A program made the position numbers and the translations under genes. Below, piece after piece: positions 11,598 through 59,688 of a stretch of 64,000 nucleotides of DNA. The DNA is from an uncultured Candidatus Saccharibacteria bacterium (GTDB lineage: Bacteria > Patescibacteriota > Minisyncoccia > GCA-002772825): the NCBI GenBank assembly GCA_964560655.1, contig CAZLLR010000001.1, forward strand, positions 36,202 through 100,201, written 5' to 3'. How positions within the stretch are numbered: the first letter of the stretch is position 1; the number at the start of each line of letters is the position of its first letter. The notes beneath the pieces are model-generated. The model saw only the letters and a program-made list of their open reading frames with translations, made no database searches and had not been told where the DNA came from.

Positions 11598-12512
11598 CTA
11601 CATCCAGCCTTTCTTTTTAAAGAAGCTGAACATAAATATAGTTGCAATAGCCATTATAGCCATTACCACCCAGAAGTCACCCTTTACCCCTACTATCGGC
11701 AAGTATCGAGTATTCATGCCAAAGATGGCTGCAATAAGAGATAGCGGAAAAGTGACAAAAGCCATGATAGTAAGAAACTTCATAACCTCATTCGTCTTTG
11801 TAGAAAGAAGTGAGTCGTTCGTCTCGCGGAGGTCTGTTAAAGTCTCTTTCTGTATTTCAAGCTGGCTAGCTACTTTAAAATATTCGCCGACCATATCAGA
11901 TAGATGATAAGAAAAATCTTTACCGAAGAAATTAACCCCGGCAACTTCAAAAGAGGAGAGGATCTCTTTGTGTGGACGCACTGCTTGATTAAAATTAATA
12001 AGATCCCTGTTTACTATAGATATACTTTTTACCATCTGCTTCTCCTTACCATTGAAAATATTATCTTCTATAAGCTCGATCTTCTCACCTATATGATCAA
12101 GTTGCCTTAGTGAGAACTCGTAAAGCTGGCGAAGTATATAGAAGACGAGGAAGCCGGCGTGTTCGCCGATATTACTCTTGTCTAAGATGGAGTTTACCTC
12201 AAACATTTTTGAGAACTCATGAAGAGGGTCGATAGTCTCATAGTGAGTAGTGATCAAGAAATTTTTCCCGATAATAAAATCAACTTCTCTCCCGTCTGAG
12301 CCTTGCGTCTTCTGACTATAGACAGGAAAGTGGAGTATGAGGTAGATGAGGTTGGGGTAGACGTCCACTTTCGGGCGAAGAGTCGGGCGCATGAGCTCGT
12401 CAGCAACAAGGATAGGGATAGAAAAATCTTTCATAATCTTCTCTATATCGTCTCTTGTCGGAGATTCAAGGTTTACCCAAATTAGCTTCTTGTGTTTATA
12501 AGTTGTCATCAT
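11598..12512 (-). CDS. corA: CorA-family Mg2+/Co2+ transporter
   Basis: GMN motif (IFGMNTRY) followed by two C-terminal TM helices. Confidence 0.8.
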   Translation of the reverse strand: MMTTYKHKKLIWVNLESPTRDDIEKIMKDFSIPILVADELMRPTLRPKVDVYPNLIYLILHFPVYSQKTQGSDGREVDFIIGKNFLITTHYETIDPLHEFSKMFEVNSILDKSNIGEHAGFLVFYILRQLYEFSLRQLDHIGEKIELIEDNIFNGKEKQMVKSISIVNRDLINFNQAVRPHKEILSSFEVAGVNFFGKDFSYHLSDMVGEYFKVASQLEIQKETLTDLRETNDSLLSTKTNEVMKFLTIMAFVTFPLSLIAAIFGMNTRYLPIVGVKGDFWVVMAIMAIATIFMFSFFKKKGWM

Positions 12513-24070: not shown

Positions 24071-24127
24071 CTCCTTTCTATTGTCAGCAGTAAAACTGAT
24101 TAAAAAATAAAAAACTTATCTATTTTC

Positions 24128-24156
24128 AGAATAACAATCTTTTTAAAATTAGTCAA
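24128..24156 (-). promoter_or_regulatory. sigma70-like promoter for the 23870..24070 gene (TTGACT-17-TATTCT on minus strand)
   Basis: -35 at plus coordinates 24151-24156 and -10 at 24128-24133, with exactly 17-nt spacing. Confidence 0.5.
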
Positions 24157-24251
24157 TATATTTTTATATATTAAAAACTAACCAAATAGGTTCGAACATC
24201 GTCTAGTGATTTGACAAAATAGCACTTTAATGCTATCTTTTTATTAGATAA

Positions 24252-24281
24252 AAACTAAACTTTGTACATAAAAAAAGGAGG
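24252..24281 (+). promoter_or_regulatory. conserved 5' leader motif (AAACTAAACTTTGTACATAAAAAAAGGAGG), instance 1
   Basis: Member of a recurring element with consensus TAAACTYYGTACTTTAAAAAGGAGG placed immediately 5' of the start codon. Preceded by TTGACA-17-TATCTT. Confidence 0.5.
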
Positions 24282-24288
24282 TGTGATT

Positions 24289-24522
24289 ATGAAGCTATCA
24301 GAAAAACGAATAAGGGAGATCGCATTTCTTTACCTCAAGTGGAAACTTGAGAGGGAAGGATTTTCTCTGCAGAATTTTCAAGATAGGGTGACTTTTACAT
24401 GCGGTGCGATAGGCATACCAGAAGAAGAAGGTATGGCGTTCGCAAAAGAAATTCTTACGCGTTTAGAAAAAAGATCTGTCGATGATGCGTTATCAGAGGC
24501 TAAGCCTGTCGGATCTGCGTAA
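24289..24522 (+). CDS. 77-aa hypothetical protein (MKLSEKRIREIAFLYLKWKLEREGF...)
   Basis: ATG at 24289 preceded by the GGAGGTG SD. The ORF-track start at 24262 lies inside the leader motif. Confidence 0.55.
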   Translation: MKLSEKRIREIAFLYLKWKLEREGFSLQNFQDRVTFTCGAIGIPEEEGMAFAKEILTRLEKRSVDDALSEAKPVGSA

Positions 24523-24541
24523 ATGTAACACTCTTTTTTAA

Positions 24542-24567
24542 AGACCACACAAAACATCGTGTGGTCT
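24542..24567. terminator. hairpin AGACCACAC-aaaacatc-GTGTGGTCT (bidirectional)
   Basis: 9-bp stem with A-run before and T/C-run after. The ACCACRC/GYGTGGT stem type recurs at 26623 and 29779. Confidence 0.6.
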
Positions 24568-24576
24568 TTCTTCTTG

Positions 24577-25500
24577 CTATTGTAAGAGTAGTTGTGCTAA
24601 TGAATCAATGACCCCTGGGTTGATATTATATTTAGGAAAGGAACCAAAAGGATTCACGTCTATCACAATTGGTTCTTCTCCTGAGATTACATCTATACAT
24701 AGATACTCTAGATTCAAATTTTTACAAAGAGACTTAAATTTACTCTCATACTCTTTAAAAATATCTGTTTCTATTTTAACTAATCTCGCTGAGCTTTTAT
24801 CTAGAGGATCGATTTCTTCTCTTTTATAAGAGAATATTTTATCTCCTATAATAAAGATTCTGTATTCCTCTCCCTTTATCTTATTTTGTAAAAGACAAGT
24901 CCCGAATATATCTATATGTTTTTTTAAATCAATATTTCCTTCAATAATATGAGGTGGATAAATATAAGCTGTATCCCCGCTATCTTCTTCAAAAGATAAC
25001 ATTTCTTTTAATTGAGTTTCTGCCTCAGGTAAAGCTTGAGAGAAATAACAATTTCCAAGACTTTTAGAAATCTGTGTTTCTGAAAATTTTAAGTCCATAT
25101 TATTTTTTCTTAATACAAAAGAATTTGGTGTTTTAATTCCACATTCCCTTACTTTTTTGAGAGAATAAAGTCTATTTCGAGCAAAGTGTGCATCTTTGAT
25201 ATTATTTATACTAATATCAGTAAACAAAAGTCCGAGAGTTTTGAAGAATTCAGTATTTTCTCTTTTTTGGTAATCTTCCGTATGTGGGCTAATCAAATCA
25301 TAAGGGTATCTAATAAATGCTCGGGTAAAGGTTTTTATTGGATGTTTTTCTACTTTTTCTCCAATGTAAACAAATTTATCATCAACAGCCTTGATATCTT
25401 TATCTGAAAAAATAAGATCTTCTTTTTTTGATATTTTTCGGATAGATTTTTCTAAATCTCCTAAACTATTATATGAGCAAGCGAGTAATATTTTATTCAT
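24577..25500 (-). CDS. ATP-grasp ligase, RimK-like
   Basis: EYRIFIIGDKIFSYKRE matches RimK DIRCLVVGDEVV, and LEYLCIDVISGEEPIVIDVNPFGSF matches the RimK/MdnC C-terminal E-x-N Mg-binding motif. 307 aa. Confidence 0.65.
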   Translation of the reverse strand: MNKILLACSYNSLGDLEKSIRKISKKEDLIFSDKDIKAVDDKFVYIGEKVEKHPIKTFTRAFIRYPYDLISPHTEDYQKRENTEFFKTLGLLFTDISINNIKDAHFARNRLYSLKKVRECGIKTPNSFVLRKNNMDLKFSETQISKSLGNCYFSQALPEAETQLKEMLSFEEDSGDTAYIYPPHIIEGNIDLKKHIDIFGTCLLQNKIKGEEYRIFIIGDKIFSYKREEIDPLDKSSARLVKIETDIFKEYESKFKSLCKNLNLEYLCIDVISGEEPIVIDVNPFGSFPKYNINPGVIDSLAQLLLQ

Positions 25501-25513
25501 AGAAATTAAAATA

Positions 25514-25541
25514 AACAGGAGCGGATAACCGCTCCTGTTTA
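25514..25541 (-). terminator. perfect hairpin AAACAGGAGCGG-ttat-CCGCTCCTGTTT followed by a T-rich run on the minus strand, 13 nt upstream of the ATP-grasp ATG
   Basis: 12-bp stem, and the U-tract is present only on the minus strand. Positioned like an attenuator of a transcript reading into the ATP-grasp gene. Confidence 0.5.
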
Positions 25542-25699
25542 AATACTTAATCTTTCCAAATTTTATTTGCCATAATAAATATTATTAATTAATAATGGAC
25601 TAATTTAATGCTATCATAAAGTATTTTTTCTATCAACTAGGTCAAATAATTACCTTTTTTACCCAAAACTGGACATCAATTCTAAATCCTTCTTAACCT

Positions 25700-25900
25700 C
25701 CATCCAGTTCAAAGTTCTGAATGTATCCAGTAGACGGAGCCAAACAGAACAGCCCTCCAATTTTCGTCCGCGCCGAGCGTGGGGCGTGCGATGGGAGTGG
25801 AATTACCACGCACTCGGTGTGGAAGTGGTCGAGCTTTGTTCGAAATAAGTTCGGATTTCATCATATAGACGGAGTCTCGTAAAATAATCTCAAAATTAAA
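25700..25900. ncRNA. candidate structured RNA / GC-rich leader element (unassigned)
   Basis: Local GC-rich block in an AT-rich genome (CCGCGCCGAGCGTGGGGCGTGCGATGGGAGTGG...). Internal complementary segments CCGAGTGCGTGG / CCACGCTCGG. The only overlapping ORF (25709..25939, minus) starts with TTG, has no SD, and has atypical composition. Confidence 0.25.
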
Positions 25901-26022
25901 ATATTCTATATCAGAGGTTACATATTCATCTATGTTCAAGCCACTTGTCTTTTTTCATATATATGATTTAATGAAAATAGATATATTGGTCTTTAAAAAT
26001 CGTAAAGAAGGAGGTGAGTAAG

Positions 26023-26364
26023 ATGGCAGATTTTAAAGTGAAACTTATACAAATTCCCATTATTCCAAGTTTGAGTCCCGGAACACCGGAGTTTAGAGAA
26101 GATAGACGCGCTCATATGTCCACATTAATGTCTATCTATGAGATGAGTAAGAAGGAAAGGACTTGCCCTAGATGCGGTGAAAATAAAAGTCCAACTAAAC
26201 CCCAATGTTTCTCTTGTCTTTCAACAAGTGTTCTAAGCCTCCATTACCTTTCCGAACAAACAAAGGAATGTAAATTTCACGGAATTAATTTCTGTCCAAA
26301 ATGCGACAAATTTATGCCCTCATTTATGAAAAAATGCCCCAGCTGCTTTTATAAAAGGAGTTGA
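26023..26364 (+). CDS. 113-aa Cys-rich small protein with four CxxC pairs, N-terminus MADF
   Basis: SD AAGGAGGTG. CPRC...CFSC and CPKC...CPSC. The first 30 or so nt including the SD are near-identical to the 26410 ORF. Confidence 0.55.
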   Translation: MADFKVKLIQIPIIPSLSPGTPEFREDRRAHMSTLMSIYEMSKKERTCPRCGENKSPTKPQCFSCLSTSVLSLHYLSEQTKECKFHGINFCPKCDKFMPSFMKKCPSCFYKRS

Positions 26365-26409
26365 ACTCTAAACATGCCTATACTGTATATAAAAAGGAGG
26401 TGAGTAGAA

Positions 26410-26606
26410 TGGCAGATTTTAGAGATAGCTTCCCTAAGGTAGACCCTCGCATGAAGATCAGATCTGATCTCGATAACCGTAAACACGGACCGCATCATGA
26501 TGTGTTCGTCCCTGTTTCTGGAGGAACTGATCAAACAAGGGTTACCCCCGATGGAGAGGTGATCGGCGGAACTACTAACATAGGAAAAGCCAAAAAGGAC
26601 TGGTAA
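26410..26606 (+). CDS. 65-aa small protein P2 (MADFRDSFPKVDPRMKIRSDLDNRKHGPHHDVFVPVSGGTDQTRVTPDGEVIGGTTNIGKAKKDW)
   Basis: SD AAGGAGGTG. N-terminus is duplicated from the 26023 ORF. The C-terminal PDGEVxGGTT...KK block is paralogous to P1 (23870..24070). Confidence 0.55.
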
Positions 26607-26617
26607 ATACCAATTCT

Positions 26618-26652
26618 AAAAAGGCCACATAAAAGATTGTGTGGCCTTTTTT
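26618..26652 (+). terminator. rho-independent terminator GGCCACA-taaaagatt-TGTGGCC + TTTTTT
   Basis: Stem plus T-run after the 26410 ORF. Confidence 0.65.
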
Positions 26653-26743
26653 ACCCCAAACAGGTTCAAATATCGTCACCACAAGAGTACTTCCATTTTC
26701 TAATTCGCAATCTCAAAGAAAATTAGGTCGCCAGTAGGCGGAG

Positions 26744-26772
26744 TTGACCTTCTTAAGTATATATTATATAGT
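26744..26772 (+). promoter_or_regulatory. promoter TTGACC-17-TATAGT
   Basis: Same architecture as the promoters at 29225 and 31909. Upstream flank carries CCAGTAGGCGGAG. Confidence 0.45.
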
Positions 26773-26783
26773 ATTTTTAGAAT

Positions 26784-26810
26784 TAAACTAAACTTTGTAC
26801 TTTAAAGGGG
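26784..26810 (+). promoter_or_regulatory. conserved 5' leader motif, instance 2 (TAAACTAAACTTTGTACTTTAAAGGGG)
   Basis: See the 24252 entry. Confidence 0.5.
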
Positions 26811-26817
26811 TGAGATT

Positions 26818-27177
26818 ATGACAATGGAAGAAGACACAGTAGATCGTAGTCCGAGAAGAATAGATCGAACAAGAATTTTTAAAGGTAACTTCGCTCGAAA
26901 AATACTTAAAAGATCAAGATATTCTCCCATAGAAGTTGAAAACTTCATGATAAAGAATAAAGTTTACTGGAATGGAGATCTCGAACTTAAGGAAAACGGT
27001 GTCCATAGTCATTGCTACTACACAGAGATGTTCTGGAGTATCATGAAGAGAATACCTACTGGCGTCCATGAAATATCTGAAATAGAATCATTCAAGCCAA
27101 GGAGACCAATTGTTTTACTACTTAGATTCTTCGGTTCTTATCTGTATTTAACAAAGCTAAAGAAATCTTTATCTTAA
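26818..27177 (+). CDS. 119-aa hypothetical protein
   Basis: ORF with the conserved leader/SD. No recognisable domain. Confidence 0.5.
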   Translation: MTMEEDTVDRSPRRIDRTRIFKGNFARKILKRSRYSPIEVENFMIKNKVYWNGDLELKENGVHSHCYYTEMFWSIMKRIPTGVHEISEIESFKPRRPIVLLLRFFGSYLYLTKLKKSLS

Positions 27178-27196
27178 CCCATAAGGAGATAGACAA

Positions 27197-27379
27197 ATGA
27201 CTCAGAAGGAAGGAGCACTTATAGATAAAGACGTCAAGCACCCAAGCCACGATACACGATCCTCAGATGCGTCAACTTATGACGAGGTATGCAAAAAATG
27301 CGGAGCAACAGATAAAGTCCCTGGTGGTTGGGGACGGCTTGCCCTACTTTGTCCTAAAAACTCTAAAGCTATAGCTTAA
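27197..27379 (+). CDS. 60-aa small protein with CxxC...C (zinc-ribbon-like)
   Basis: SD AAGGAG 8 nt upstream, and a terminator after it. Confidence 0.5.
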   Translation: MTQKEGALIDKDVKHPSHDTRSSDASTYDEVCKKCGATDKVPGGWGRLALLCPKNSKAIA

Positions 27380-27395
27380 GTCAAGGTGGTTGATC

Positions 27396-27428
27396 GCTCA
27401 CAAGACATATTCTTGTGAGCATTTTTTT
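27396..27428 (+). terminator. rho-independent terminator GCTCACAAG...CTTGTGAGC + TTTTTTT
   Basis: 9-bp stem plus T7. Confidence 0.65.
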
Positions 27429-27733
27429 ATAAAGATAATTTTTTCTACCCAAATAAATAAGCCCGAGTATTGTCACCATAAGAGGACTTCTATCTTTATA
27501 CTCCTTCTAATCACTAAGGATTAGGTCACCCAGTAAACAGAGTCAGTTAAAATAGTCTTATTTTTTAGGCTATTTTATTTTATCTCATATGAGATTTTGA
27601 CGGGCGTTAGAGGTTATAATATTTGTGTTATACTTTTTTATATGAAGAAGAAAACTCAAATATTATTTATACATGGTGGTATGACCTTTAAGAAACAGAA
27701 AGATTATTTACATCATTTAAAAACTAAAAAAAT

Positions 27734-29224
27734 ATGGACGATAATATAACGATACTTACAAAAACAGATTTCAAAGAATACCTTTTGTGCAATAAGTGTC
27801 TTTGGCTTAAAAAGAAATGCCCGGAGGAATATATTCAAGGTGACTTTTCTCTTTTCCTTAAAAAACTTATAAAAGACGGTTATGAAGTTGAATCATATGT
27901 ACAAAAACTTTTTCCTGATGGTGTCTTTCTCTCAGGCGACAAAGAAGCATTGATTTCGAGAACAAAAGATTTACTTACAGGAGATAAACCAATCTTCCAA
28001 GCAACCTTTGAAACAGATAGTGGCCTTTTTGCTAAAGTCGATATTCTTGATTTTAATAAAAAGACAAATAAGTGGGACTTGTACGAAGTAAAAGCAAGTT
28101 CAGAAATAAAGACGGATATAAAACACAACCACGTTAAAGACGTTATATTTCAGACAATCGTTGCAGAAGACTCAGGAGTTGATATTGGTGATAGTTACAT
28201 TATCTATATAAATAGGGAATATAGGCGCAGTGGTGACATAGACCTTGATAAGTTATTTATAGTTGAGAATATTGTCGAAAAAGTAGTTGAGCAAAAGGAG
28301 TTAGTACGAGGAGAGATACAATGTGCGTTAGACATGCTTAAGAAAGATGATGTGTCTCTCGATGGATGTGACTGTTTATACAAAAGCCATGGCCAACGGT
28401 GCGATTCTTTTTTTAAGTTTAACCCAAATGTACCCGAGTACTCTATTCACCACATTGTCACAGGAAATAAGCTAAAGACACTTTTAGAAGAAGGACTGTT
28501 AGATATAAAAGATATACCAGAAGATTTTGAACTTACTGATATTCAAAGAGATAAGGTTTCCCTGCAAAAAATAGGTAAACCTCTTATAGATAAAATTGCA
28601 ATAAAACAAACCTTGTCAGAGTTAGTGTTTCCCATATACTTTCTAGACTATGAAACATATGGATCTCCCATACCTCTTCTTGATGGCTATAAGACGAATC
28701 AGCAAGTCGTATTTCAAGTATCATTACATGTGTTAAGAGAAGATGGAACATTGGAACACTTTGAGTATTTAGCAGATAAGCTAGATAGTGCCACGAGAGG
28801 GCTTGTAGATATGCTAAAGGCTAATATAGGCGATGTGGGGAGCGTCGTTGTATGGTATGAGAGCTTTGAGAAGGGGAGAAATGCAGAATTAGCCGAATTA
28901 CACCCAGAAGATAAAGAATTTATGGAAGATTTAAACAATAGAGTGTTTGATCTTATGAAAGTTTTTAAGAAAGATTACTTGCATCCAGATTTCCAAGGTA
29001 GCGCCTCAATAAAGAAAGTTCTTCCTGTTCTTTTGCCAGAGCTGTCATATAAAAATTTGGACATACAAAACGGTACGATGGCGCTTAGTGAATGGGAGAA
29101 GATAATTAAAGGAAAGTTGAGTAAAGAAGAGGCTGAAAAAATAAAGCAAAATTTACTAAAATATTGTGAGCTCGACACACTTGCTATGGTAGAGATATAT
29201 AAGAAGTTAGTTATGTTAGCATAA
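27734..29224 (+). CDS. DUF2779-type protein: N-terminal Cas4/RecB-like PD-(D/E)xK nuclease fold plus C-terminal RNase-H-like region
   Basis: D...DLYEVK nuclease motif (VDILDF...WDLYEVKAS), Cys cluster (CNKC...C, CDCLYKSHGQRC), C-terminal FLDYET acidic motif. About 500 aa as in the DUF2779 family. Family assignment is from memory. Confidence 0.6.
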   Translation: MDDNITILTKTDFKEYLLCNKCLWLKKKCPEEYIQGDFSLFLKKLIKDGYEVESYVQKLFPDGVFLSGDKEALISRTKDLLTGDKPIFQATFETDSGLFAKVDILDFNKKTNKWDLYEVKASSEIKTDIKHNHVKDVIFQTIVAEDSGVDIGDSYIIYINREYRRSGDIDLDKLFIVENIVEKVVEQKELVRGEIQCALDMLKKDDVSLDGCDCLYKSHGQRCDSFFKFNPNVPEYSIHHIVTGNKLKTLLEEGLLDIKDIPEDFELTDIQRDKVSLQKIGKPLIDKIAIKQTLSELVFPIYFLDYETYGSPIPLLDGYKTNQQVVFQVSLHVLREDGTLEHFEYLADKLDSATRGLVDMLKANIGDVGSVVVWYESFEKGRNAELAELHPEDKEFMEDLNNRVFDLMKVFKKDYLHPDFQGSASIKKVLPVLLPELSYKNLDIQNGTMALSEWEKIIKGKLSKEEAEKIKQNLLKYCELDTLAMVEIYKKLVMLA

Positions 29225-29253
29225 TTGACTTTTTTAAGTATCTCTTGTAAGAT
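29225..29253 (+). promoter_or_regulatory. promoter TTGACT-17-TAAGAT
   Basis: Near-identical 29-mer to the promoter at 31909 (TTGACTTTTYTRARTATMTCTTGTAARAT). Confidence 0.5.
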
Positions 29254-29270
29254 ATATTTAGATAGAAAGA

Positions 29271-29303
29271 TAAACTCCGTACTTTATAACTTAAAAAGGA
29301 GGA
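29271..29303 (+). promoter_or_regulatory. conserved 5' leader motif, instance 3 (TAAACTCCGTACTTTATAACTTAAAAAGGAGG)
   Basis: See the 24252 entry. Confidence 0.5.
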
Positions 29304-29310
29304 AATCAAA

Positions 29311-29466
29311 ATGAGTGACACAGATCATATTTGCTTAACAGATAAGATACTAGAGAAATTTTTCTCACACAATGCCTCAAGAGAAGACACGGATCGGATA
29401 ACAAAAGATATTGAGGATTGTGTTTTCTGTAAAAGAAAATACATTAAAAGAGGACTTAAGAAGTGA
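29311..29466 (+). CDS. 51-aa small protein (MSDTDHICLTDKILEKFFSHNASREDTDRITKDIEDCVFCKRKYIKRGLKK)
   Basis: ORF read by eye (under 60 aa, so absent from the track). SD GGAGG 8 nt upstream. TGA stop. Confidence 0.45.
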   Translation: MSDTDHICLTDKILEKFFSHNASREDTDRITKDIEDCVFCKRKYIKRGLKK

Positions 29467-29480
29467 TGTGATCCTTAACA

Positions 29481-29505
29481 TAAATTCTGTACTCTAAAAA
29501 GGAGG
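29481..29505 (+). promoter_or_regulatory. conserved 5' leader motif, instance 4 (TAAATTCTGTACTCTAAAAAGGAGG)
   Basis: See the 24252 entry. No separate promoter here, so probably co-transcribed with the 29311 ORF. Confidence 0.45.
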
Positions 29506-29512
29506 TTCCATA

Positions 29513-29755
29513 ATGAACAATGATTCTAAAATTTTCTTGCTTGGTGTTGTTTGTAGCTTATTGCAGATAGTCGGACTTGCTTTAATTATAGCAAGTCCAT
29601 ATTTACCACAATCCATTTCCGTTATTATTGGAATTAGTGGATTTGCTGCGATAGTTAAACTTTTTCTCCCAAGCAAAGCGGATTTTGAAGGAAAAATCCT
29701 TCGACCAGCTGCAGCATTAGCAGGATTTGGGATAATAATTATCTCTTTAATTTAA
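29513..29755 (+). CDS. 80-aa membrane protein (3 TM)
   Basis: SD GGAGG. Hydrophobic throughout. Confidence 0.55.
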   Translation: MNNDSKIFLLGVVCSLLQIVGLALIIASPYLPQSISVIIGISGFAAIVKLFLPSKADFEGKILRPAAALAGFGIIIISLI

Positions 29756-29778
29756 TATCATAATAAAATATTTTAAAA

Positions 29779-29810
29779 ACCACGCAAAATATCGCGTGGT
29801 TTTCTCTTTT
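29779..29810 (+). terminator. rho-independent terminator ACCACGC-aaaatatc-GCGTGGT + TTTCTCTTTTT
   Basis: Same stem family as the hairpin at 24542. Confidence 0.65.
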
Positions 29811-29859
29811 TATATCATCTATATTTTATTATTCGTGTAGTGAATTAGAAGACAAGAAG

Positions 29860-29892
29860 CAACGGCTACCGAGTTTTTTTCGGTAGCCGTTG
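29860..29892. terminator. hairpin CAACGGCTACCGA-gttttttt-CGGTAGCCGTTG
   Basis: 13-bp perfect stem directly downstream of the msrB-domain stop codon (minus strand). AACGGCT stem family. Confidence 0.6.
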
Positions 29893-29932
29893 TAAATTAG
29901 GCTATCTAGTAGTAGACAAAACTAATTAGAGA

Positions 29933-30466
29933 TCAGAGAAATAAGTAAAGATACTCTTCATAACCTTCACTCTCCATCCCTTCCCTAGGTATAAATCTAA
30001 GGGCTGCGGAATTCATACAATATCTAACCTTATCATTTTCAATCGGTCCATCTAGGATAATATGCCCTAAGTGAGAATCGGCATATTTACTACGGATCTC
30101 CGTATGAGGGATGATCAATTTATAATCTTTTCTTTCTCTAACAAAATCTTTATCTATCGGCTTGAGAAAGCTGGGCCACCCTGTTCCTGAGTCAAATTTA
30201 TCTACTGAAGAAAATAATGGCTCCCCAGAGACTATATCTACATATATACCATCTTCATGATTGTCCCAATATTCATTTTGAAAGGCCGTCTCCGTACTTT
30301 CTTTCTGAGTAACTTTGTACTGTAGGGGAGTAAGAGTACTTCTTAATACTTCATCGATCGGTTTTTGAAAATTTTCCCATTCATTAGTATTAGATACAGA
30401 TTTTCCAATCTTTTCAAATAGATTGTCGTATGTGCCCTCACCCCAAATTGACTCTATAAACTTATC
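29933..30466 (-). CDS. msrB: peptide-methionine (R)-S-oxide reductase MsrB domain, in frame with upstream msrA and lacking its own start codon
   Basis: [10 protein letters not shown]...[11 protein letters not shown] catalytic block and GWPSF. Zinc-less type (no CxxC pairs). 177 codons beginning immediately after the msrA TGA. No ATG/GTG/TTG before the domain core. Confidence 0.6.
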
Positions 30467-31102
30467 TCACCCCGAACCCTCTCTGTAATACTTATATCTA
30501 ATAGGATTCTTCTTATAATAATTTTGATGGTATTCTTCAGCTAACCAAAATGCTCCAGCCTTCTCAATACTCGTTGATATAGGTTTATCAAAGATTTTTC
30601 TTTCTTCAACTTGTTTTATTACTCCTTCTGCAATAGATTTCTCTTCATCTGTCTGGTAATAGACTGCTGAAGTATATTGATATCCACGATCGTAGAATGA
30701 CCCTTCATTATCCGTCGGGTCAGTATGCTTTAATAGATACAAAACAAGATCATGGTAATTAGTCTTAGTAGGATCATAGGTTACCTTAATCATCTCTCTG
30801 TGTCCGGTGTCGCCGGAAGAGACTTGATTATAACTCGGCTCTTCTACACCACCCCCCATATACCCAGATACAACATCTATAACTTCAGGTAATTTTTCAT
30901 AATCACTTTCAGTACACCAGAAGCAACCACCAGCAAAGTAAGCAACAGCTTCTCCCTTATTTGTAGTCGAAGTATCGATATTACTAGGCGCTGTTTTGCC
31001 TTTATACCAGCCGTAACCCCAAATACTTACCACTAGTATCCCTATAAGGACGATTATAAAAAATAGTTTAATCATATGTCTTGTCATTATAACACTACAC
31101 AC
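30467..31102 (-). CDS. msrA: peptide-methionine (S)-S-oxide reductase MsrA, membrane-anchored
   Basis: GGCFWC active-site motif. N-terminal TM helix (IKLFFIIVLIGILVVSIWGY). Stop is a TGA at plus-coordinates 30467-30469. Confidence 0.8.
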   Translation of the reverse strand: MCSVIMTRHMIKLFFIIVLIGILVVSIWGYGWYKGKTAPSNIDTSTTNKGEAVAYFAGGCFWCTESDYEKLPEVIDVVSGYMGGGVEEPSYNQVSSGDTGHREMIKVTYDPTKTNYHDLVLYLLKHTDPTDNEGSFYDRGYQYTSAVYYQTDEEKSIAEGVIKQVEERKIFDKPISTSIEKAGAFWLAEEYHQNYYKKNPIRYKYYREGSG

Positions 31103-31310
31103 TTATGATAAATAGATGACATGGAAAGAGCTAATCAAGATAACAAGCCTGCCAGTAGCAGTCACTTCTCTTTATTGCCTCGGTCCGCTTATCTTTGTAC
31201 TTCTAGCTTTGCCAGATGACGGAGACAGATGAGCCGTTCGCCTGTAAAGATTTCTATCTCAACATATGCCGGATATTTGAGAGTACTCGATCCTATGATA
31301 TACTTTTTAT

Positions 31311-31823
31311 ATGAAAAAAGGATTCATAAATGTATTGTTTATAATAGTAATTATAGTAATTGCCGGTGGTATTGGATATTTTATTTCTAATACTAACCGA
31401 GATATTGATAGTACTGAAGGAGTCAATGATATAACAACATCTTTAGATAAGACTATAGACCTAAGTAATAAGGGATTAAAAAGTATCCCTTATTATATAT
31501 TCGATCAGACAAACATAGAAGAACTCAATGTCTCTAATAATTCTTTGACAGGGGCTATACAAGCAGAGATAGGACACTTATCTAAACTAAAAATACTCAA
31601 TGCCAAAAATAATTTAATGACGGGAGTGCCAGCTGAGATCGGACAGCTACAAAACTTAGAAATCCTCGATCTCTCTAACAATCAACTTACGGGACTACCT
31701 AATGAACTAGGAAGTCTTAGAAAACTTAAAATATTAAACCTCTCTGGCAACCAATACTCAAACCAAGACCTTAAAGAGATCCGCGCTAAACTCCCAAAAA
31801 CAGTAAATATAATCCTAAATTAA
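31311..31823 (+). CDS. leucine-rich-repeat protein with N-terminal TM anchor
   Basis: At least five 23-24-residue LRRs of LxxLxxLxLxxNxLTGxxPxExGxL type (plant-specific-like). Confidence 0.7.
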   Translation: MKKGFINVLFIIVIIVIAGGIGYFISNTNRDIDSTEGVNDITTSLDKTIDLSNKGLKSIPYYIFDQTNIEELNVSNNSLTGAIQAEIGHLSKLKILNAKNNLMTGVPAEIGQLQNLEILDLSNNQLTGLPNELGSLRKLKILNLSGNQYSNQDLKEIRAKLPKTVNIILN

Positions 31824-31908
31824 AAAGACTTTAATACTGCCTACTGGCGACCTAATTTTAGACGACTAAAGAGAGTAGAAGCACGAAGGTGCCCTTGTAG
31901 TGATGATA

Positions 31909-31937
31909 TTGACTTTTCTGAATATATCTTGTAAAAT
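31909..31937 (+). promoter_or_regulatory. promoter TTGACT-17-TAAAAT
   Basis: Paralogous to the promoter at 29225. Confidence 0.5.
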
Positions 31938-31952
31938 ATGTTTAGAAAAAAT

Positions 31953-31977
31953 AAACTTCGTACTTTAAAAAAGGAGC
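31953..31977 (+). promoter_or_regulatory. conserved 5' leader motif, instance 5 (TAAACTTCGTACTTTAAAAAAGGAG)
   Basis: See the 24252 entry. Confidence 0.5.
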
Positions 31978-31984
31978 TATAACT

Positions 31985-32932
31985 ATGAGACAGAAAGTTA
32001 TTCTATTCGCTGGACCAGGAAGAGTTGCTGAGCCTACAATAGATAAATTAATACCATACGGGTGGAAGGCTGTAGTCAGTTATAGAGAAGGGCATAGAAA
32101 AGAAAGTGGCTCTCAAAAGACTGTAGAAACTTTAATCAATAAATATGGTACTGATGTTGTCTATGGTATCCCGGCAGAAATATCAGCGTACCCTGAAGCA
32201 CATAGATTCATAACAGAGGCCATGGCACACTATCCAGATATTGAAGAAATTGCCTTAATCAACGTAGCTTCTCAATATCCACCTAATCCATTTTTTGATA
32301 GAGCAACCAAAAGTGAGCTAATCAAAAAAGACTGGCGATACTTTTTATCCAACTTCTGCGTGATGCAGAACGTGACAAGGGTATTTCTAAGGCAGCTTGA
32401 AGGGAAAAATATAAAAGCAAATATCATAAGCTTCGGAGACAGTAGGGCTTATGAATATTTTTACCCTGACATCATACATCCTTTCTATTTCTCTAAAGAT
32501 AGAAAGGATAAAGATATCATCAACCTTTCTTTAAAAGAAGCTAAGGTGTTAGGATTAGATCTCCTAAGAAAATTGGGGGTAATTGGAAGGGATTGTAACC
32601 CTTATATGCTCTCAAAACTCTTGATAATGTATGCTACAAGAGAGCTTGCCCTTAAGCACGCTGGAGGTAACACTCAGATAAATGTCCTTGCTCCTGGAAT
32701 AATGGGCACATCTCCAAATGATAAACCCGGAGAAGCTGAGGCCTTTGCAAGAAAAACTACAATCTTACAGAGGATAGGAGGCTTCACCTCCGCTGCTGAT
32801 AAAATCGCCCACTTAGTAAGTGACAACTCTTATACTACTGGGGAGATAATCACAATAGATGGAGGTAAGCACCTGATATGGCTTGAAGAGCAAGAAATGA
32901 AGCGAAATAGAAGAAACTTAAATTTAGCTTGA
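31985..32932 (+). CDS. SDR-family NAD(P)-dependent oxidoreductase (enoyl-reductase-like)
   Basis: N-terminal Rossmann-type FAGPGRVAEP and C-terminal APGIMGTSP...ITGEIITIDGG. Confidence 0.65.
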   Translation: MRQKVILFAGPGRVAEPTIDKLIPYGWKAVVSYREGHRKESGSQKTVETLINKYGTDVVYGIPAEISAYPEAHRFITEAMAHYPDIEEIALINVASQYPPNPFFDRATKSELIKKDWRYFLSNFCVMQNVTRVFLRQLEGKNIKANIISFGDSRAYEYFYPDIIHPFYFSKDRKDKDIINLSLKEAKVLGLDLLRKLGVIGRDCNPYMLSKLLIMYATRELALKHAGGNTQINVLAPGIMGTSPNDKPGEAEAFARKTTILQRIGGFTSAADKIAHLVSDNSYTTGEIITIDGGKHLIWLEEQEMKRNRRNLNLA

Positions 32933-33018
32933 AAGCAATGCCCGATTCTCTTTAAAAGGAGTCGGGCATTTTATAATAAAAAGTATTATTTATCCTATTT
33001 TGCGGTATAATTAAAAAT

Positions 33019-33180
33019 ATGAGAGAAAGACCACTTATATGGGCAGGACTTTTTATAGGTTCTTTCATCGGTAGTTATATACCGATGTTTTGGGGAGGAA
33101 GTCTCTTATCTATAACATCTGTGCTGTTAAGCGCCATCGGCGCTTCTATCGGGGTGTGGATAGGCTACCAGCTTACGTAA
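33019..33180 (+). CDS. possible 53-aa Gly-zipper membrane peptide
   Basis: ORF read by eye, TATAAT 9 nt upstream (leaderless?). Overlaps the 3' end of the convergent MTase gene by 8 nt. Weak call. Confidence 0.25.
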   Translation: MRERPLIWAGLFIGSFIGSYIPMFWGGSLLSITSVLLSAIGASIGVWIGYQLT

Positions 33181-33862
33181 GCTTCTTCATATAAGCTAGC
33201 CAATAATTTCGCTTATAGCTCTGGCCTTTAAAACGATTGTAGTTAGTCTTCTTCAGTAATTTCTGTATTTTAAAATATTTTGAATATATCTCTGTAAAAT
33301 CTGTTTGGGAAAAAACTCTCTCTGTAAGCTTCATATCTGTATTAATATAAGTGTCATATTCTACACCAGGACTTTGCTTTAATAAGTTCTTAACATTCTT
33401 ATCTCCTTCTTTACACAAGGCTCTCACAAAAAAATGCCCTCTTGTCTTCAATACACGATAAACCTCCCTTAGGTAGATTGCACGTTCTTTCTCGTCTAGT
33501 GAGTTAGAGGACATAACATCAATAACTAAGTCATAAGAGCAGTCTTCAAATGGATAAGGTACGCCGATATTGGCTTCTAGATAACTGACTTTGATACCCA
33601 TCTCTTTTGCCCGAGACCGAGCAATCTTTATAGCAGTAGGGGACACTTCTAACCCTGTGACACTATTTCCCATCTGAGCTAGGTAATTGGCATTATTGCC
33701 AACCCCTGAACCAAGGTCAAGAATGTCCAGTTTGTCTATATCTGTGCCTTCATCTTTCTTTAGGAACTTAACGTATTGCTGAAGATCCTTACGCGGACCA
33801 CTACCCTTCGCTAAAAGCTGAGGGTTCTTATATTCTTTTTCCCATGCTGATATTTGAGCCAT
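33173..33862 (-). CDS. class I SAM-dependent methyltransferase
   Basis: Motif I LDLGSGVGNNANYL and acidic motif II (DLVIDV). Confidence 0.75.
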   Translation of the reverse strand: MAQISAWEKEYKNPQLLAKGSGPRKDLQQYVKFLKKDEGTDIDKLDILDLGSGVGNNANYLAQMGNSVTGLEVSPTAIKIARSRAKEMGIKVSYLEANIGVPYPFEDCSYDLVIDVMSSNSLDEKERAIYLREVYRVLKTRGHFFVRALCKEGDKNVKNLLKQSPGVEYDTYINTDMKLTERVFSQTDFTEIYSKYFKIQKLLKKTNYNRFKGQSYKRNYWLAYMKKLT

Positions 33863-34044
33863 ATTTTTATTATATATAGTGTTTATTATAATCTAATTCA
33901 ATAATAAATTATATCATTAAATTAATGACCATATTATTCTTTGGTAAGAGAAACTACTAAACGACTCATCCGTTAGTTGTCATATGGGCCGTTTAACATT
34001 TATCTCTTATTGTCTATAAAAATAAATTGTGTATAATTATAAAT

Positions 34045-34164
34045 ATGGCAAAAAGAATTACAGGAGTAGGGAAGAACAAACAATCACGTTCAAAAAAGAC
34101 TAAGAAACGACTTGCTTTAAAGCATGAAATGTTGGCAAAAAAAGCCGATAAAAAACACAAATAA
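34045..34164 (+). CDS. possible 39-aa highly basic peptide (MAKRITGVGKNKQSRSKKTKKRLALKHEMLAKKADKKHK)
   Basis: Read by eye. Extended -10 TGTGTATAAT 7 nt upstream (leaderless-type). Weak call. Confidence 0.25.
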   Translation: MAKRITGVGKNKQSRSKKTKKRLALKHEMLAKKADKKHK

Positions 34165-34190
34165 GTCTGCTTTTGGCGTGGTATTATAAT

Positions 34191-34394
34191 ATGAATAAAG
34201 GGTTTGGATTAATAGGGCTCTTAATAGGAATCGCTATCATAGCTATGATAGCTTTTGGTAGTTTCTACTATCCGGCTAATACGAAACAGGAGATTAAAGA
34301 CAACGGCGGAGCAAGTGGTATCTTAGACACAGCAAAAGGAGCAAAAGATGCTCTTGAAAAAAGAGATGCGGATATCTTGAGGCAGGTACAGTAA
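34191..34394 (+). CDS. prepilin-like small protein (type IV pilin-type N-terminus MNKGFGLIGLLIGIAIIAMIA, Gly instead of Glu at +5)
   Basis: Resembles a class III signal peptide (G|FxLxE consensus), but E5 is G. The ORF-track start 34173 is 18 nt upstream. Confidence 0.4.
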   Translation: MNKGFGLIGLLIGIAIIAMIAFGSFYYPANTKQEIKDNGGASGILDTAKGAKDALEKRDADILRQVQ

Positions 34395-34510
34395 AAATGA
34401 TTATTAGATCTTATCGCCACGAACGGTATTGACTTTATTAAGATTTCTGGTAATATACAGAAAGAATAAAAAATAGATTTGAACTTTAAAAAATGAAAGG
34501 GGGGATAAAG

Positions 34511-34966
34511 ATGAGTGCATTACTGAAGCGACTTTTACGGAGAAAGAAGCATGGAGACACTACCTATACGGCAAAATGTGGACACAATACGCATTTAATA
34601 GCCAAAGTGACGGCATTTGGTGAAACAGTAGAGATGACATTAGAGCCGAACGAAGACGGCTCACTTAACTACTGTATTAAGTGCCTTGAGAAGATGACCC
34701 TTCAGTGCCCTTTATGTGAGGGGCCAATATTTATTGATACTCCAATTGTCTTTTACCCTAAAAAAGAAGGAATCGCTCCGTTTATTGGGTGTGCTACATT
34801 TTATTGCACTACCAAAAACCCAAGTAAAGATGCAGATCGAAGATTCCGATGGATACCTGGCAAAAAAGGGAAAGGTAAGGCTTCAATCGATGTCAATATA
34901 GAAATGATAGAAAGAAAAAAACGATGTGTAGCAATGTGCACATCAACAAGATGTACGCCCTTATAA
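34511..34966 (+). CDS. Cys-rich hypothetical protein (multiple CxxC pairs)
   Basis: SD AAAGGGGGG 6 nt before the ATG at 34511. Terminator downstream. Confidence 0.5.
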   Translation: MSALLKRLLRRKKHGDTTYTAKCGHNTHLIAKVTAFGETVEMTLEPNEDGSLNYCIKCLEKMTLQCPLCEGPIFIDTPIVFYPKKEGIAPFIGCATFYCTTKNPSKDADRRFRWIPGKKGKGKASIDVNIEMIERKKRCVAMCTSTRCTPL

Positions 34967-34982
34967 TCTTTATCCGTAGACC

Positions 34983-35014
34983 ACCCGAGACAGCAATGTC
35001 TCGGGTCTTTTTAT
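34983..35014 (+). terminator. rho-independent terminator ACCCGAGACA...TGTCTCGGGT + TTTTT
   Basis: 10-bp stem plus T-run. Confidence 0.65.
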
Positions 35015-35376
35015 TACTTTAATATGTAATTAATAAATGATATAATGTATAAAGCTTAAAGTAATGAAGTGTTAGTCTAGCTTCATATATTTATTAATTA
35101 ATTTTAATATATTTTTATGCGAACATTTAAGACATGGGCGTTTAAGTGGTGGGAAGTTTCTTTTCTAAAGATCTGTCTTCTCTCGCTTGGTATCATTATG
35201 GCTCTGTATTTCTATGACTATCTTATGGGTCTCTTATAGCTATAGTGGGCACTCTTTATAGTGATAGCCACCTACCTCATCGTAAAGATTATTAAAGAAA
35301 ATTAAGATCAAGAGCGTCTTAAAATATAAATGAAAAATAATAATATCAAACAAGAAAAAAACTAAGTTACACTTGT

Positions 35377-35979
35377 ATGCATGAGATATTACTGCTAATT
35401 ACACAATACAGATATATAATACTTTTTCCTTTGGCTGCAGTGGAAGGGCCTATAGTAGCCTTATTGGCGGGTTTTTTGGTGTCTACTCATTATCTTAGCT
35501 TTTTCCCAGCCTATGTTATTATGCTACTAGGCGATCTTATACCAGATACAGGTTACTATTATATAGGCAGGTTTGGAAACAAGAAAAAAATAATGGAAAA
35601 GTACGGGCATAAATCAAAGATTCTTTCTTTCAATTATACTTTATTAGAAAGACTTTGGTATAATCACGGAAAGAAGACTATGTTTTTCAGTAAGCTGGCT
35701 TATGGACTAAGTACACCCTTCTTAATAAGCGCCGGACTGGCAAACATAACATTCAAAAAATTCATATCCTACGCCATACCCACAACACTTTTCCAATATA
35801 CTGTTATAATGCTTGCAGGATATTTACTCGGGCATTCTTATTTATTGGTAGAAGCATATATAAAAAATGCCGAATTAGTTGTTGCAGCTTTCTTTATATT
35901 ATTTTTAGTAGGATACGCCATATTCTTTAAATACGCCAAACAACAAATTATAAACATGGAAAAAAAGTGTAAAAAATGA
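35377..35979 (+). CDS. DedA/VTT-family membrane protein
   Basis: PLAAVEGPIVALLAGFL DedA signature. Multi-TM. Confidence 0.7.
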   Translation: MHEILLLITQYRYIILFPLAAVEGPIVALLAGFLVSTHYLSFFPAYVIMLLGDLIPDTGYYYIGRFGNKKKIMEKYGHKSKILSFNYTLLERLWYNHGKKTMFFSKLAYGLSTPFLISAGLANITFKKFISYAIPTTLFQYTVIMLAGYLLGHSYLLVEAYIKNAELVVAAFFILFLVGYAIFFKYAKQQIINMEKKCKK

Positions 35980-38800: not shown

Positions 38801-39880
38801 ATGTTTTATCTAATCAAAAAAATATTTAAATATTTACTAATTTTTTTAGGTGTTATTATCATCCTTATTTTTATAAGGAGATTAAATGGCGATTCTCAAT
38901 TTACAGACAATATATTACCGGAAAATAAACAAATCTCTATAGACTCAGGAGATTACTCCTTTGTTATAATGCACCAAGGAATTGAAAGAAAATATCTCGT
39001 CCATGTTCCCTTAAACTACAATGAGACAAACTCTATTCCTGCAATTATCATCTTACATGGAGGAGGAGGAAATATGGAAGAATCTATAAAATATTTTAAT
39101 CTTAATCCAAAGGCTGATAAAGAAGGATTCTTAGCTATATATCCTGAAGGATATGGTAAAGATTTAGATGGTAAGCACCTAGGGACGTGGAATGCAGGAA
39201 AATGTTGTGCTCCTGCAACAGATAAAAATATTGATGATGTAGGTTTTATAGATAAAGTAATAGAAAAAGTAAAAAAAGACTTTCATATCGATGGAAATAG
39301 GATCTACTCTGTTGGTTTTTCTAATGGAGCTCAAATGTCATACAGGCTAGGATGTGAACTATCTAATAAGATAGCAGCTGTAGTCCTAGGTGGATCGGTA
39401 GGAACATTTGAGGGGTGTTCACCCTCAAGGCCTATTCCTACATATATGTTTAGTGGCACAGAAGATGGATGCACCCCGTATGAAGGTGGGGAAGCATGTG
39501 GTGGTTGCGTAGGAAGATTTTTTAATTCTATCGGAATATCTATAGATGAAAATATTTATCAATGTAGTTCAGTAGATGCTTTTACTACCAAAATAGCAAC
39601 AAAAAATAATTGTTTAAAAGAACCTTCTATTACATACGACAAAGATAGTACAACTTGCGTCACATATAGTTCTTGCACAAATAATGCTGAAGTAACTTCT
39701 TGTAAAATTTCAGGTGGTGGACATGTATGGCCAGGTAAAGATCAATACAGTTTAGATATTTGCAGCAAAAGACCTAATGGGTATGTCTGCAATCAGTGGA
39801 AAAAAGCACTGGGCCCATTAATCACAGATTTCAATGTTAATGATCAAATCTGGAAATTCCTCAAAAAATATAAATTATAA
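38801..39880 (+). CDS. secreted alpha/beta-hydrolase esterase (PHB-depolymerase/LpqC-like), Cys-rich C-terminus
   Basis: Signal/TM anchor, IILHGGGG oxyanion region, GFSNGA nucleophile elbow. Confidence 0.6.
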   Translation: MFYLIKKIFKYLLIFLGVIIILIFIRRLNGDSQFTDNILPENKQISIDSGDYSFVIMHQGIERKYLVHVPLNYNETNSIPAIIILHGGGGNMEESIKYFNLNPKADKEGFLAIYPEGYGKDLDGKHLGTWNAGKCCAPATDKNIDDVGFIDKVIEKVKKDFHIDGNRIYSVGFSNGAQMSYRLGCELSNKIAAVVLGGSVGTFEGCSPSRPIPTYMFSGTEDGCTPYEGGEACGGCVGRFFNSIGISIDENIYQCSSVDAFTTKIATKNNCLKEPSITYDKDSTTCVTYSSCTNNAEVTSCKISGGGHVWPGKDQYSLDICSKRPNGYVCNQWKKALGPLITDFNVNDQIWKFLKKYKL

Positions 39881-54564: not shown

Positions 54565-55017
54565 ATGAAAATAAGTCAAAAATTACATCAGTTTACAGAC
54601 GAGAAAGCCCTTATCATCATAACGGGTGCACAAGAAGCTGATTTCCACATAGCTTCAGACAGTGAGATAGACAAGATCGATTCATTCAAACTTGAGAAAA
54701 TTCACTTCTCTGATAGTGAAGGATTTTTCGACAGATCAGGTGGAGGAGGGGAAACAGGTGTTTCAGGCTCAATCAAAGAACCTCCAAAAGAAGAGTATCG
54801 GCAGAAATTCCTTAAAGAGCTAACGGCTCATCTTAAAGATATAGAAGGCAAGCAAGAGATAACAGGCGTCTATCTCTTCACTCCGGACTACTTAATCAAC
54901 ATGGTAAAAGATACAATGTCAAAAGAATTACAAGGCAAGATAAAGTTTACAGCAAAAGGCAATTACTACCATGAACATCCTTTCGAATTAATAAAAAAAA
55001 TAAGTCCTACCAAGTAA
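54565..55017 (+). CDS. hypothetical protein
   Basis: 150-aa ORF with no recognisable motif. Confidence 0.4.
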   Translation: MKISQKLHQFTDEKALIIITGAQEADFHIASDSEIDKIDSFKLEKIHFSDSEGFFDRSGGGGETGVSGSIKEPPKEEYRQKFLKELTAHLKDIEGKQEITGVYLFTPDYLINMVKDTMSKELQGKIKFTAKGNYYHEHPFELIKKISPTK

Positions 55018-58512: not shown

Positions 58513-59688
58513 TTATTTCTTTGTCTGCTTTAAAACAACAAATTCTTTCTTTTCCCTAAAAGATAGAATTTTGTTCTGTAGTTTACTTACAAGAAGAGGA
58601 AGTAATTTGCTTAATTTTTTTTCATCTGGGCTTAGTATCTCTTCCCATTTATTCTCTGGCACTAAGACCTCTTTTACTTTATCCATATCAAAAGAGAATC
58701 TCTCTTGGACATTCTTCGTGATGAAACCACGCGAGCTAAAGACACGAGCCACCTTGCTCGACTCCATAAAAGTCAGTATATCCTCACGAAGCTCTTTTAA
58801 TCTTTTTTTATTTTTTTCTTCAACCTCTTTTATCTCGAAAAATTCAGTTATTACTTTAGCGACATCTTCTTCACTTTTTGTTTCTGGTTTGTCTTTCTTG
58901 TATTCATGCGACCACATAGGACAAATCTTCTTATACCCACAATAATCACATAAAGCTGAAGGAGTAGGGGAGAAACTATTTTTCTCTTCTTTTTCCTCCA
59001 CTTCCTTTATGGTGGCTAATATAAAATCTCGCGTCTTATTTATATCCTCTTGGGGATTTTCTTTTTCGGCAGTTATCTTTTCATTATGCTTAAGGAAGTA
59101 TAACGATAACTTTATTTTTGAAGCGGGGAGTCGAGGCCACCTGTCTTGGAGAGCCATATGGTAGAGAGAGAGCTGTAAATTATCTTTAAGCATCTCCGCA
59201 CTAGGCATCTTCTTGCCTGTCTTATAGTCTATGATCTCATACTCTTCACTTTCCGGATCTTTATCTATCCTGTCTATTATACCGACGATAGTATGATCTT
59301 CTTGAGTTTCTTCGTCACGCAAAGTTACACTGAAACGACTTTCTAGTTCCACAGCGTTAAACTTCCAAGGTTGATTCTTCTTGTAGAAATTTTTTATAAG
59401 TTTTACTCCTTCTTCAAAATAAAGTTTTTCAAAATCTTCTTTTTTTAGAGGGTTCGGCCACTCTATAGACTCAGACTTCTTATTCCATTTATCAGTAAAG
59501 AAGTCTATAACTTCATCAAGGGTAGGGTATAAGGGGCCACGCTCAAACATAAATTTAAGCGCCGAATGAACTAAAGAGCCAAAAACAGCCTCAATCCGCT
59601 TAGGAGCTGGAATCTTATCAAGTTTCTGATATTTATACTTAAGTGGACACGTCCTATACGTATCTAAGGCAGAATAAGATGTTCTCAT
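58513..59688 (-). CDS. PD-(D/E)xK nuclease family protein (Cas4/AddB-nuclease-like) with C-terminal Cys cluster
   Basis: YRTCPLKYKY N-terminal motif, IIDRID...EIIDYKTGK nuclease core, and C-terminal CDYCGYKKICPMW. Confidence 0.6.
   Translation of the reverse strand: MRTSYSALDTYRTCPLKYKYQKLDKIPAPKRIEAVFGSLVHSALKFMFERGPLYPTLDEVIDFFTDKWNKKSESIEWPNPLKKEDFEKLYFEEGVKLIKNFYKKNQPWKFNAVELESRFSVTLRDEETQEDHTIVGIIDRIDKDPESEEYEIIDYKTGKKMPSAEMLKDNLQLSLYHMALQDRWPRLPASKIKLSLYFLKHNEKITAEKENPQEDINKTRDFILATIKEVEEKEEKNSFSPTPSALCDYCGYKKICPMWSHEYKKDKPETKSEEDVAKVITEFFEIKEVEEKNKKRLKELREDILTFMESSKVARVFSSRGFITKNVQERFSFDMDKVKEVLVPENKWEEILSPDEKKLSKLLPLLVSKLQNKILSFREKKEFVVLKQTKK

Follow-up and report, generated by a model that had tools for sequence, protein, structure and literature searches.

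When a single in-frame TGA divides the two domains of a methionine-sulfoxide repair gene, is the codon recoded, is the base an error, or has the gene been broken? The question is raised by positions 29933 to 31102 of the 64,000-nucleotide stretch of contig CAZLLR010000001.1 analysed here (the window), where an msrA open reading frame (ORF) is followed, in the same frame and directly past a TGA, by the coding sequence of an MsrB domain. We conclude that this locus is likely a fused, membrane-anchored msrAB gene carrying a recent nonsense mutation that is private to its lineage. This kind of event is already known, and we regard the locus as real but ordinary. The organism looks like a low-GC bacterium resembling Patescibacteria (window GC content 36.5%).

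A fused msrAB gene interrupted by one in-frame TGA

Translation of the minus strand from 31102 to 29933 gives, in one frame, a hydrophobic anchor and an MsrA domain, an in-frame TGA, an MsrB domain and a second TGA. The truncated msrA ORF (30467..31087) encodes 206 residues from an ATG at 31087, with a GTG at 31102 and an ATG at 31075 as other possible starts; a transmembrane anchor at the N-terminus is followed by the full PMSR domain, and the ORF closes with YYREGSG-TGA. The premature TGA occupies 30467..30469. The msrB remnant that follows on the same strand (29933..30466) comprises 177 in-frame codons and a terminal TGA (29933-29935), and encodes the conserved end of the MsrA extension (DKFIESIWG), a linker and a complete zinc-less SelR/MsrB domain. 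This second TGA closes the frame precisely at the C-terminal end of the homologues.

Profile searches place a full domain on either side of the stop. Upstream, the Pfam PMSR profile (PF01625) matches with E=9e-55 over positions 2-152 of 153, and TIGR00401 (MsrA) is passed with 163.8 bits against a cut-off of 108.1. Downstream, SelR/MsrB (PF01641) matches with E=4.6e-43 over positions 1-116 of 116, and TIGR00357 (MsrB) is passed with 181.6 bits against a cut-off of 113.05. A first description of the locus, made from its letters alone (hereafter the sequence-only reading), had proposed a fused msrAB broken by one in-frame stop, and these domains, together with homologues that run uninterrupted and colinear through the site, bear that proposal out. 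The MsrA and MsrB motifs that it listed are likewise all present on the minus strand. They include the MsrA catalytic motif GGCFWC (30914..30931), which carries Cys rather than selenocysteine (Sec) and is invariant or nearly so in homologues, the MsrB motifs GTGWPSF (30167-30187) and a further stretch of ten residues (30044-30073), and the 11-residue MsrB catalytic motif that includes RYCMNS (29993..30025), again with Cys and not Sec. Owing to the TGA at 30467-30469 there is no single uninterrupted msrAB ORF, and the locus is by descent a disrupted member of the fused MsrA-MsrB family, not an intact one.

The N-terminal hydrophobic segment IKLFFIIVLIGILVVSIWGYGWY (31004..31072, minus strand), whose position is conserved in homologues, is read here as a signal-anchor. 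The basic residues that precede it point to an extracytoplasmic topology, and in an AlphaFold model of the homologue P0003 the equivalent segment is predicted to form a helix (residues 2-23).

The MsrB half has no evident way of being translated on its own. The earliest in-frame ATG, GTG or TTG after the TGA is a TTG at 30118, already past the GWPSF motif, so that a complete MsrB is left without a canonical start of its own, as the sequence-only reading had also observed. The in-frame codons at +4 and +7 after the stop are the non-canonical ATA and ATT only, and from the GTG overlapping the stop (gGTGa) only an out-of-frame ORF of two codons would run. We considered an independent MsrB start or reinitiation and rejected it, there being no ATG, GTG or TTG before 30118 and nothing that supports reinitiation. 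An intrinsic-terminator-like hairpin (29860..29892, minus strand; 13 pairs, 8 of them G-C) lies about 40 nt past the msrB stop, and none was found between msrA and msrB. Since the sole terminator thus lies after msrB, the msrB part should still be in the transcript. MsrB itself is presumably not made, and no second msrB copy was found within the window.

An invariant arginine replaced by a stop

When about 5.8 billion protein clusters were searched for homologues, matches ran into the thousands; the best 120 were aligned with MAFFT. All 120 are uninterrupted MsrA-MsrB fusions of 309-454 residues (mostly 350-440) that are colinear through the TGA site. The closest are 72-74% identical, and those with names are mostly Patescibacteria (Paceibacterota, Uhrbacteria, Parcubacteria). 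In this alignment all 120 sequences have Arg at the position of the TGA, within the motif YRxGSGRDxFIxxxWG, and no homologue has Cys or Sec there. Among the 237 proteins retrieved the motif reads SGRD in 196, CGRD in 16 and SGKD in one, and an ending in ...GSG is confined to the two proteins called from the window itself.

The sequence-only reading had proposed a comparison of orthologues at this very codon. The Arg codon at the site is AGA in four distinct nearest lineages (L005; L006/L007; L008; L009-L011; 72-74% identical), and the TGA is not conserved. Because the nearest relatives use AGA, the Arg codon that is most frequent in the window as well, one A-to-T change (or C-to-T from CGA) suffices for the stop.

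We further note that the TGA is not found elsewhere. Degenerate DNA scans specific for the TGA, with the pattern HQ-(12 codons)-YR-x-x-S-G-TGA-D-x-F/Y, covered 185,579 species-representative genomes and the JGI metagenome contigs, and in no other msrAB did they find a stop at this position. They yielded three chance matches in non-msr genes, one among the genomes (L002, in an ispH/rpsA-like region) and two among the metagenomes (L003 and L004, in a nadD-like region). A search of the species-genome contigs for the same population, with exact flanks and NNN at the codon, gave zero matches, and none of the roughly 5.8 billion protein clusters holds a protein 77-100% identical to the MsrA part. 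The window thus represents a population without sampled close relatives, and among the two DNA collections and the 237 proteins the TGA is private to its lineage.

Several observations bear on whether the TGA is real. The truncated product is on record twice, from an NCBI contig of 102,778 bp (206 residues) and from a JGI/IMG contig of 35,025 bp (202 residues). A look-up of contigs that encode the exact 206-residue product gave no record, and the 202-residue version led to the JGI contig (Ga0256727_1000318; IMG 3300023548; L001). This contig is 99.985% identical to the window over 19.4 kb (21647-41076) and carries the same TGA. The two sequences differ at three positions, namely a synonymous TAC/TAT in msrA (30755), a synonymous CTG/CTT (34525) and a G6/G5 homopolymer (34499). 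Because of these three differences they are not one copied consensus, and because the TGA is common to two slightly different consensus sequences, a random consensus error is unlikely. As far as consensus assemblies tell, the TGA is probably real in the organism. The differences themselves suggest strain-level microdiversity or homopolymer assembly noise; the one at 34499 also alters the usable start ATG of the ORF at 34493..34966 (MKGGIKMSALL... versus MSALL...).

The position of the stop within the protein was examined in the AlphaFold model of P0003, which was built from 69 sequences and has a mean predicted local distance difference test (pLDDT) score of 91.7. After the MsrA core the model has helices at residues 190-200, 202-210 and 216-219, then a low-confidence linker (222-226, pLDDT below 50) and then MsrB. 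The invariant Arg is R202, at the start of the second, confidently predicted helix (202-210). By this model the stop interrupts a structured and conserved part of the protein, about 20 residues short of the flexible linker. It does not coincide with a natural boundary between domains, which is as expected for a random hit and unlike a designed boundary. The truncated MsrA retains 49 of 49 columns that are at least 95% conserved, as well as the whole Pfam MsrA domain; it may still be active.

The msrB part is similarly well preserved, with 56 of 57 columns of at least 95% conservation kept and an identity to relatives as high as that of the msrA half. The deviating codon is CAT for His328 (30104..30106, minus strand), at a column that is Arg in 120 of 120 homologues (PRTEIRS; CGT or CGC in relatives) and also in the aligned solved MsrB structures; a single G-to-A change accounts for it. 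R328H might mark the onset of relaxed constraint, or else represent a second change that inactivates the domain. As a sign of relaxed constraint it is weak evidence, and about one in ten of the 121 aligned sequences has a singleton deviation at an otherwise invariant column. Between the two genotypes with the TGA only about 1 in 10,000 sites differs, and an undecayed msrB remnant is what a young mutation would be expected to leave.

These observations can be brought together in a simple course of events. The ancestral gene would have been a membrane-anchored, probably extracytoplasmic, fused msrAB. A single-base change, most simply AGA (Arg) to TGA, would then have hit the invariant Arg in the helical extension at the C-terminal end of MsrA. 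Translation would now halt after residue 206 and yield an anchored MsrA with its catalytic domain intact and its last conserved helices gone, and the 177-codon msrB part would be co-transcribed and remain untranslated save for a background UGA leak. The msrB part would look intact as the mutation is recent and limited to one population. Among the possibilities offered by the sequence-only reading, its 'very recent nonsense mutation' is the one that fits all the evidence, from the AGA in relatives and the Arg in every aligned homologue to the lack of the TGA in any other lineage found.

Recoding, readthrough and error as alternatives

Some Patescibacteria (Gracilibacteria, Absconditabacteria) read UGA as Gly, and a reassigned code of the code 4 or 25 type, or one in which UGA means Arg, would account for a TGA inside a gene. 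The remainder of the window argues against this. Its 54 probable genes end in TAA (35), TAG (11) or TGA (8), and behind the seven other TGA-ended genes the next TAA or TAG follows within 1-25 codons, as against 186 codons for the truncated msrA. The TGA stop at 1112-1114 is followed 8 nt later by tRNA-Glu, and besides msrAB no long ORF of the window, including those the size of rpoB and rpoC, contains a mid-gene TGA. The statement of the sequence-only reading that TGA is a genuine terminator elsewhere, with no internal TGA in the long genes, therefore stands. We rejected genome-wide reassignment on these counts: a reassigned genetic code is excluded, and TGA is an ordinary terminator here.

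A translational bypass, of the kind known from T4 gene 60, would have the ribosome leave the GGG before the stop and land on a GGG of the downstream repeat. The arrangement of GGG and stop does resemble a take-off site, and a second GGGG lies 29 nt downstream. Matched GGG codons therefore exist, but a ribosome that landed on either of those downstream would meet a TGA at once or be in the wrong frame, and the gap would remove the DxFIxxxW residues, which the window sequence still conserves. The repeat in question is the 8-mer GGGGTGAG (30466-30473 and 30437-30444, minus strand), which the sequence-only reading had taken to bracket the stop. It does not do so, as the TGA lies within its first copy. 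The copies are out of frame with each other (G-stop-D versus W-G-E) and both cover conserved residues (SG-R-D and W-G-E), and we discarded a hop between them because the frame is not kept and conserved residues would be lost. Reassignment and bypass together thus receive only a minute share of our confidence. In its unmutated form the first copy would be GGGGAGAG, which matches at 7 of 8 positions, and the stop-creating T made the repeat perfect; local 8-mer repeats of this sort cover 1.2% of the window bases. An origin of the T by misalignment (quasi-repeat)-templated mutation is possible, though speculative and conceived post hoc.

Insertion of selenocysteine at the UGA, giving a selenoprotein MsrAB, is suggested by the fact that both the MsrA and the MsrB families include selenoproteins (PMC13188914; PMC1278935). 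In the known bacterial Sec-MsrA, Sec replaces the catalytic Cys to give GUFW (PMC13188914). The UGA of a selenoprotein aligns with a redox Cys or Sec, and here it aligns with an Arg that is invariant and not redox-active, while GGCFWC and RYCMNS both keep their Cys. Around the stop the RNA has no unusual fold, with a minimum free energy of -7.2 kcal/mol and z-scores against shuffled controls of 0.01 (65 nt) and -0.06 (151 nt). Rfam gave no match to a selenocysteine insertion sequence (SECIS) or to any other relevant family at the TGA site up to E=10, and the tRNA genes of the 64-kb window are those for tRNA-Glu and tRNA-Asn only, with none for tRNA-Sec. The search for a SECIS-like hairpin 3' of the TGA, which the sequence-only reading had recommended, thus came back empty (z about 0, no Rfam match). 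We rejected selenocysteine on the combination of the invariant non-redox Arg column, the Cys in both catalytic motifs and the lack of a SECIS-like fold, an Rfam match or a window tRNA-Sec, and consider it extremely improbable.

A more serious alternative is that the stop is functional and leaky, such that programmed UGA readthrough produces mostly anchored MsrA and a minor amount of full-length MsrAB, with msrB kept under selection. UGA is generally the leakiest bacterial stop codon. The complete msrB domain, with all but one of its highly conserved columns kept, and its place in the same transcription unit as msrA are what this explanation predicts, although an intact msrB is equally expected for a young mutation. 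A stop under such selection should be conserved among relatives, and the two DNA collections and 237 proteins contain no other lineage with a TGA at this site. Downstream of the stop no stimulatory structure is present, and the context TGA GAT shares its TGA-GA with the TGA GAC of the bona fide stop that precedes tRNA-Glu. The stop stands in place of an invariant Arg with which a predicted helix begins, and near-cognate readthrough is not expected to restore that Arg. The possibility of selenocysteine or programmed readthrough that the sequence-only reading had listed is not supported, given the non-redox Arg, the lack of a SECIS-like structure and the stop that is not conserved. We regard a functional leaky stop as unlikely, and the specific form in which such a stop is maintained to give abundant anchored MsrA and a minor MsrAB by near-cognate readthrough at the invariant Arg site as more doubtful still. 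If it were true, the leaky stop would be a natural control of stoichiometry by readthrough in a Patescibacteria-like bacterium.

The remaining explanation is a sequencing, assembly or consensus error, under which the organism would have AGA or CGA at the site and an intact msrAB. The codon is one base away from that of the relatives, and the data are metagenome-assembled and at consensus level, both of which leave room for an error. Set against this, the same TGA appears in two non-identical assemblies with three differences in 19.4 kb, the truncated product is also recorded from the 102,778-bp NCBI contig, and the difference is due to a substitution and not to a homopolymer indel, in a window that has no other mid-gene TGA. 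An error, which the sequence-only reading had also listed, is made improbable by the second, non-identical assembly.

Some observations weigh against a recent nonsense mutation and temper our confidence in it. The evidence for the TGA is at consensus level, and the two assemblies that bear it may derive from read sets that are not independent. The truncated MsrA is without the RDxFIxxxWG segment, which even P0129, a stand-alone anchored homologue, keeps. The msrB part has neither a frameshift nor a further stop, and R328H is its one deviation at a conserved column, which readthrough would predict as well. The only TGA-bearing sequences available are near-identical, so that a young mutation and selection on msrB after the stop look alike, and in a comparison with the nearest relatives, at most 74% identical in protein, synonymous sites would be saturated.

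Related systems and neighbouring genes

The membrane-anchored or extracytoplasmic fused MsrAB proteins of Patescibacteria and others (P0001-P0120, with the annotation 'peptide methionine sulfoxide reductase msrA/msrB'; Vibrio, for example, P0117) share with the window locus the anchor, the GGCFWC MsrA, the YRxGSGRDxFIxxxWG motif, the linker and a zinc-less MsrB with GTGWPSF, HLGHI and RYCMNS, at 50-74% identity over 94-100% of the length. They differ in being uninterrupted, with Arg at the site, whereas the window has the TGA and in addition His for Arg in PRTEIRS. The same domain order and a zinc-less MsrB are found in two fusions of solved structure, PDB 7e43 (E=1e-70) and S. pneumoniae MsrAB1 (PDB 3e0m, E=4e-66). 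These enzymes, and with them the S. pneumoniae SpMsrAB2, H. influenzae MsrAB and Neisseria PilB, have an MsrA C-terminus of the ...KNPxGYCHI type, and the window protein instead has the SGRD helical extension. The MsrB domain of Neisseria PilB (PDB 1l1d) is also kin, but PilB-type proteins carry an N-terminal thioredoxin domain that the window gene does not have. Consistent with this, the PilB-type equivalog PRK14018 scores 329.2 bits against a cut-off of 522, and the match spans only profile positions 183-516, with no thioredoxin domain.

SpMsrAB2 is surface-exposed, with CcdA-Etrx partners (PMC3914529), and the MsrAB of H. influenzae is periplasmic (PMC9404787). By analogy, these enzymes are likely functional counterparts of the ancestral window protein in an extracytoplasmic repair role. 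No CcdA or Etrx partner gene was found among the Pfam-annotated genes of the JGI contig (L001, window 21647-41076), the part of the window that was screened.

The Sec-MsrA proteins (GUFW; for example Clostridium/Alkaliphilus oremlandii; PMC13188914) likewise have an in-frame UGA in an msr gene. In these the UGA takes the place of the catalytic Cys and a SECIS hairpin comes after it, whereas in the window it replaces a non-catalytic Arg and has no hairpin. The closest likeness is to ordinary bacterial nonsense pseudogenes, with which the locus shares the single-base change, the restriction to one lineage and a downstream frame that is open as the event is recent. Nothing about the locus is distinctive in that comparison, save that its upstream domain is probably functional, which would make the event a loss of a domain and not of a whole gene.

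Turning to the surroundings, in one related lineage a membrane protein of 126 residues similar to MerT (PF02411) is encoded divergently to, and directly upstream of, the intact msrAB (L009 5585-5965; L010 5585-5965; L011 2249-2629). This MerT-like protein could be a candidate electron-transfer partner of the extracytoplasmic MsrAB; no such gene adjoins the window msrAB. Just past the msrAB terminator lie two small plus-strand ORFs (29311-29466 and 29513-29755), both of them gene calls of the JGI contig and both without a Pfam match. One product is of 51 residues with a CxxC-like motif (CVFC), and the other is of 80 residues and strongly hydrophobic.

Further away, the region at 23737-27734, flanked by a NUDIX gene adjoining tRNA-Asn and by a DUF2779 gene, has a low density of long ORFs. 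The gene calls of L001 place small genes (29-119 residues) and one gene of 307 residues in it, none with a Pfam match, and it may be a variable or poorly understood region. Across the window, a Shine-Dalgarno-like 4-mer (loose match) precedes only 10 of 50 gene starts, and few of these resemble AAGGAGG. Many ATGs lie a few bases past TATAAT-like boxes (for example 11598..12512, 38801..39880, 54565..55017 and 58513..59688). These patterns suggest that leaderless or short-leader mRNAs may be widespread in the window.

An in-frame TGA within a family that contains selenoproteins is not in itself evidence for recoding. Four checks decide such a case, namely the residue that homologues have at the column, the codon of the nearest relatives, a hairpin downstream and the conservation of the stop. 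For annotation, we advise that the locus be marked as a disrupted msrAB and not as a stand-alone msrA. For the organism, the finding means that the MsrB half of a methionine-sulfoxide repair enzyme at the cell surface has probably been lost only recently, in one uncultivated population that resembles Patescibacteria.

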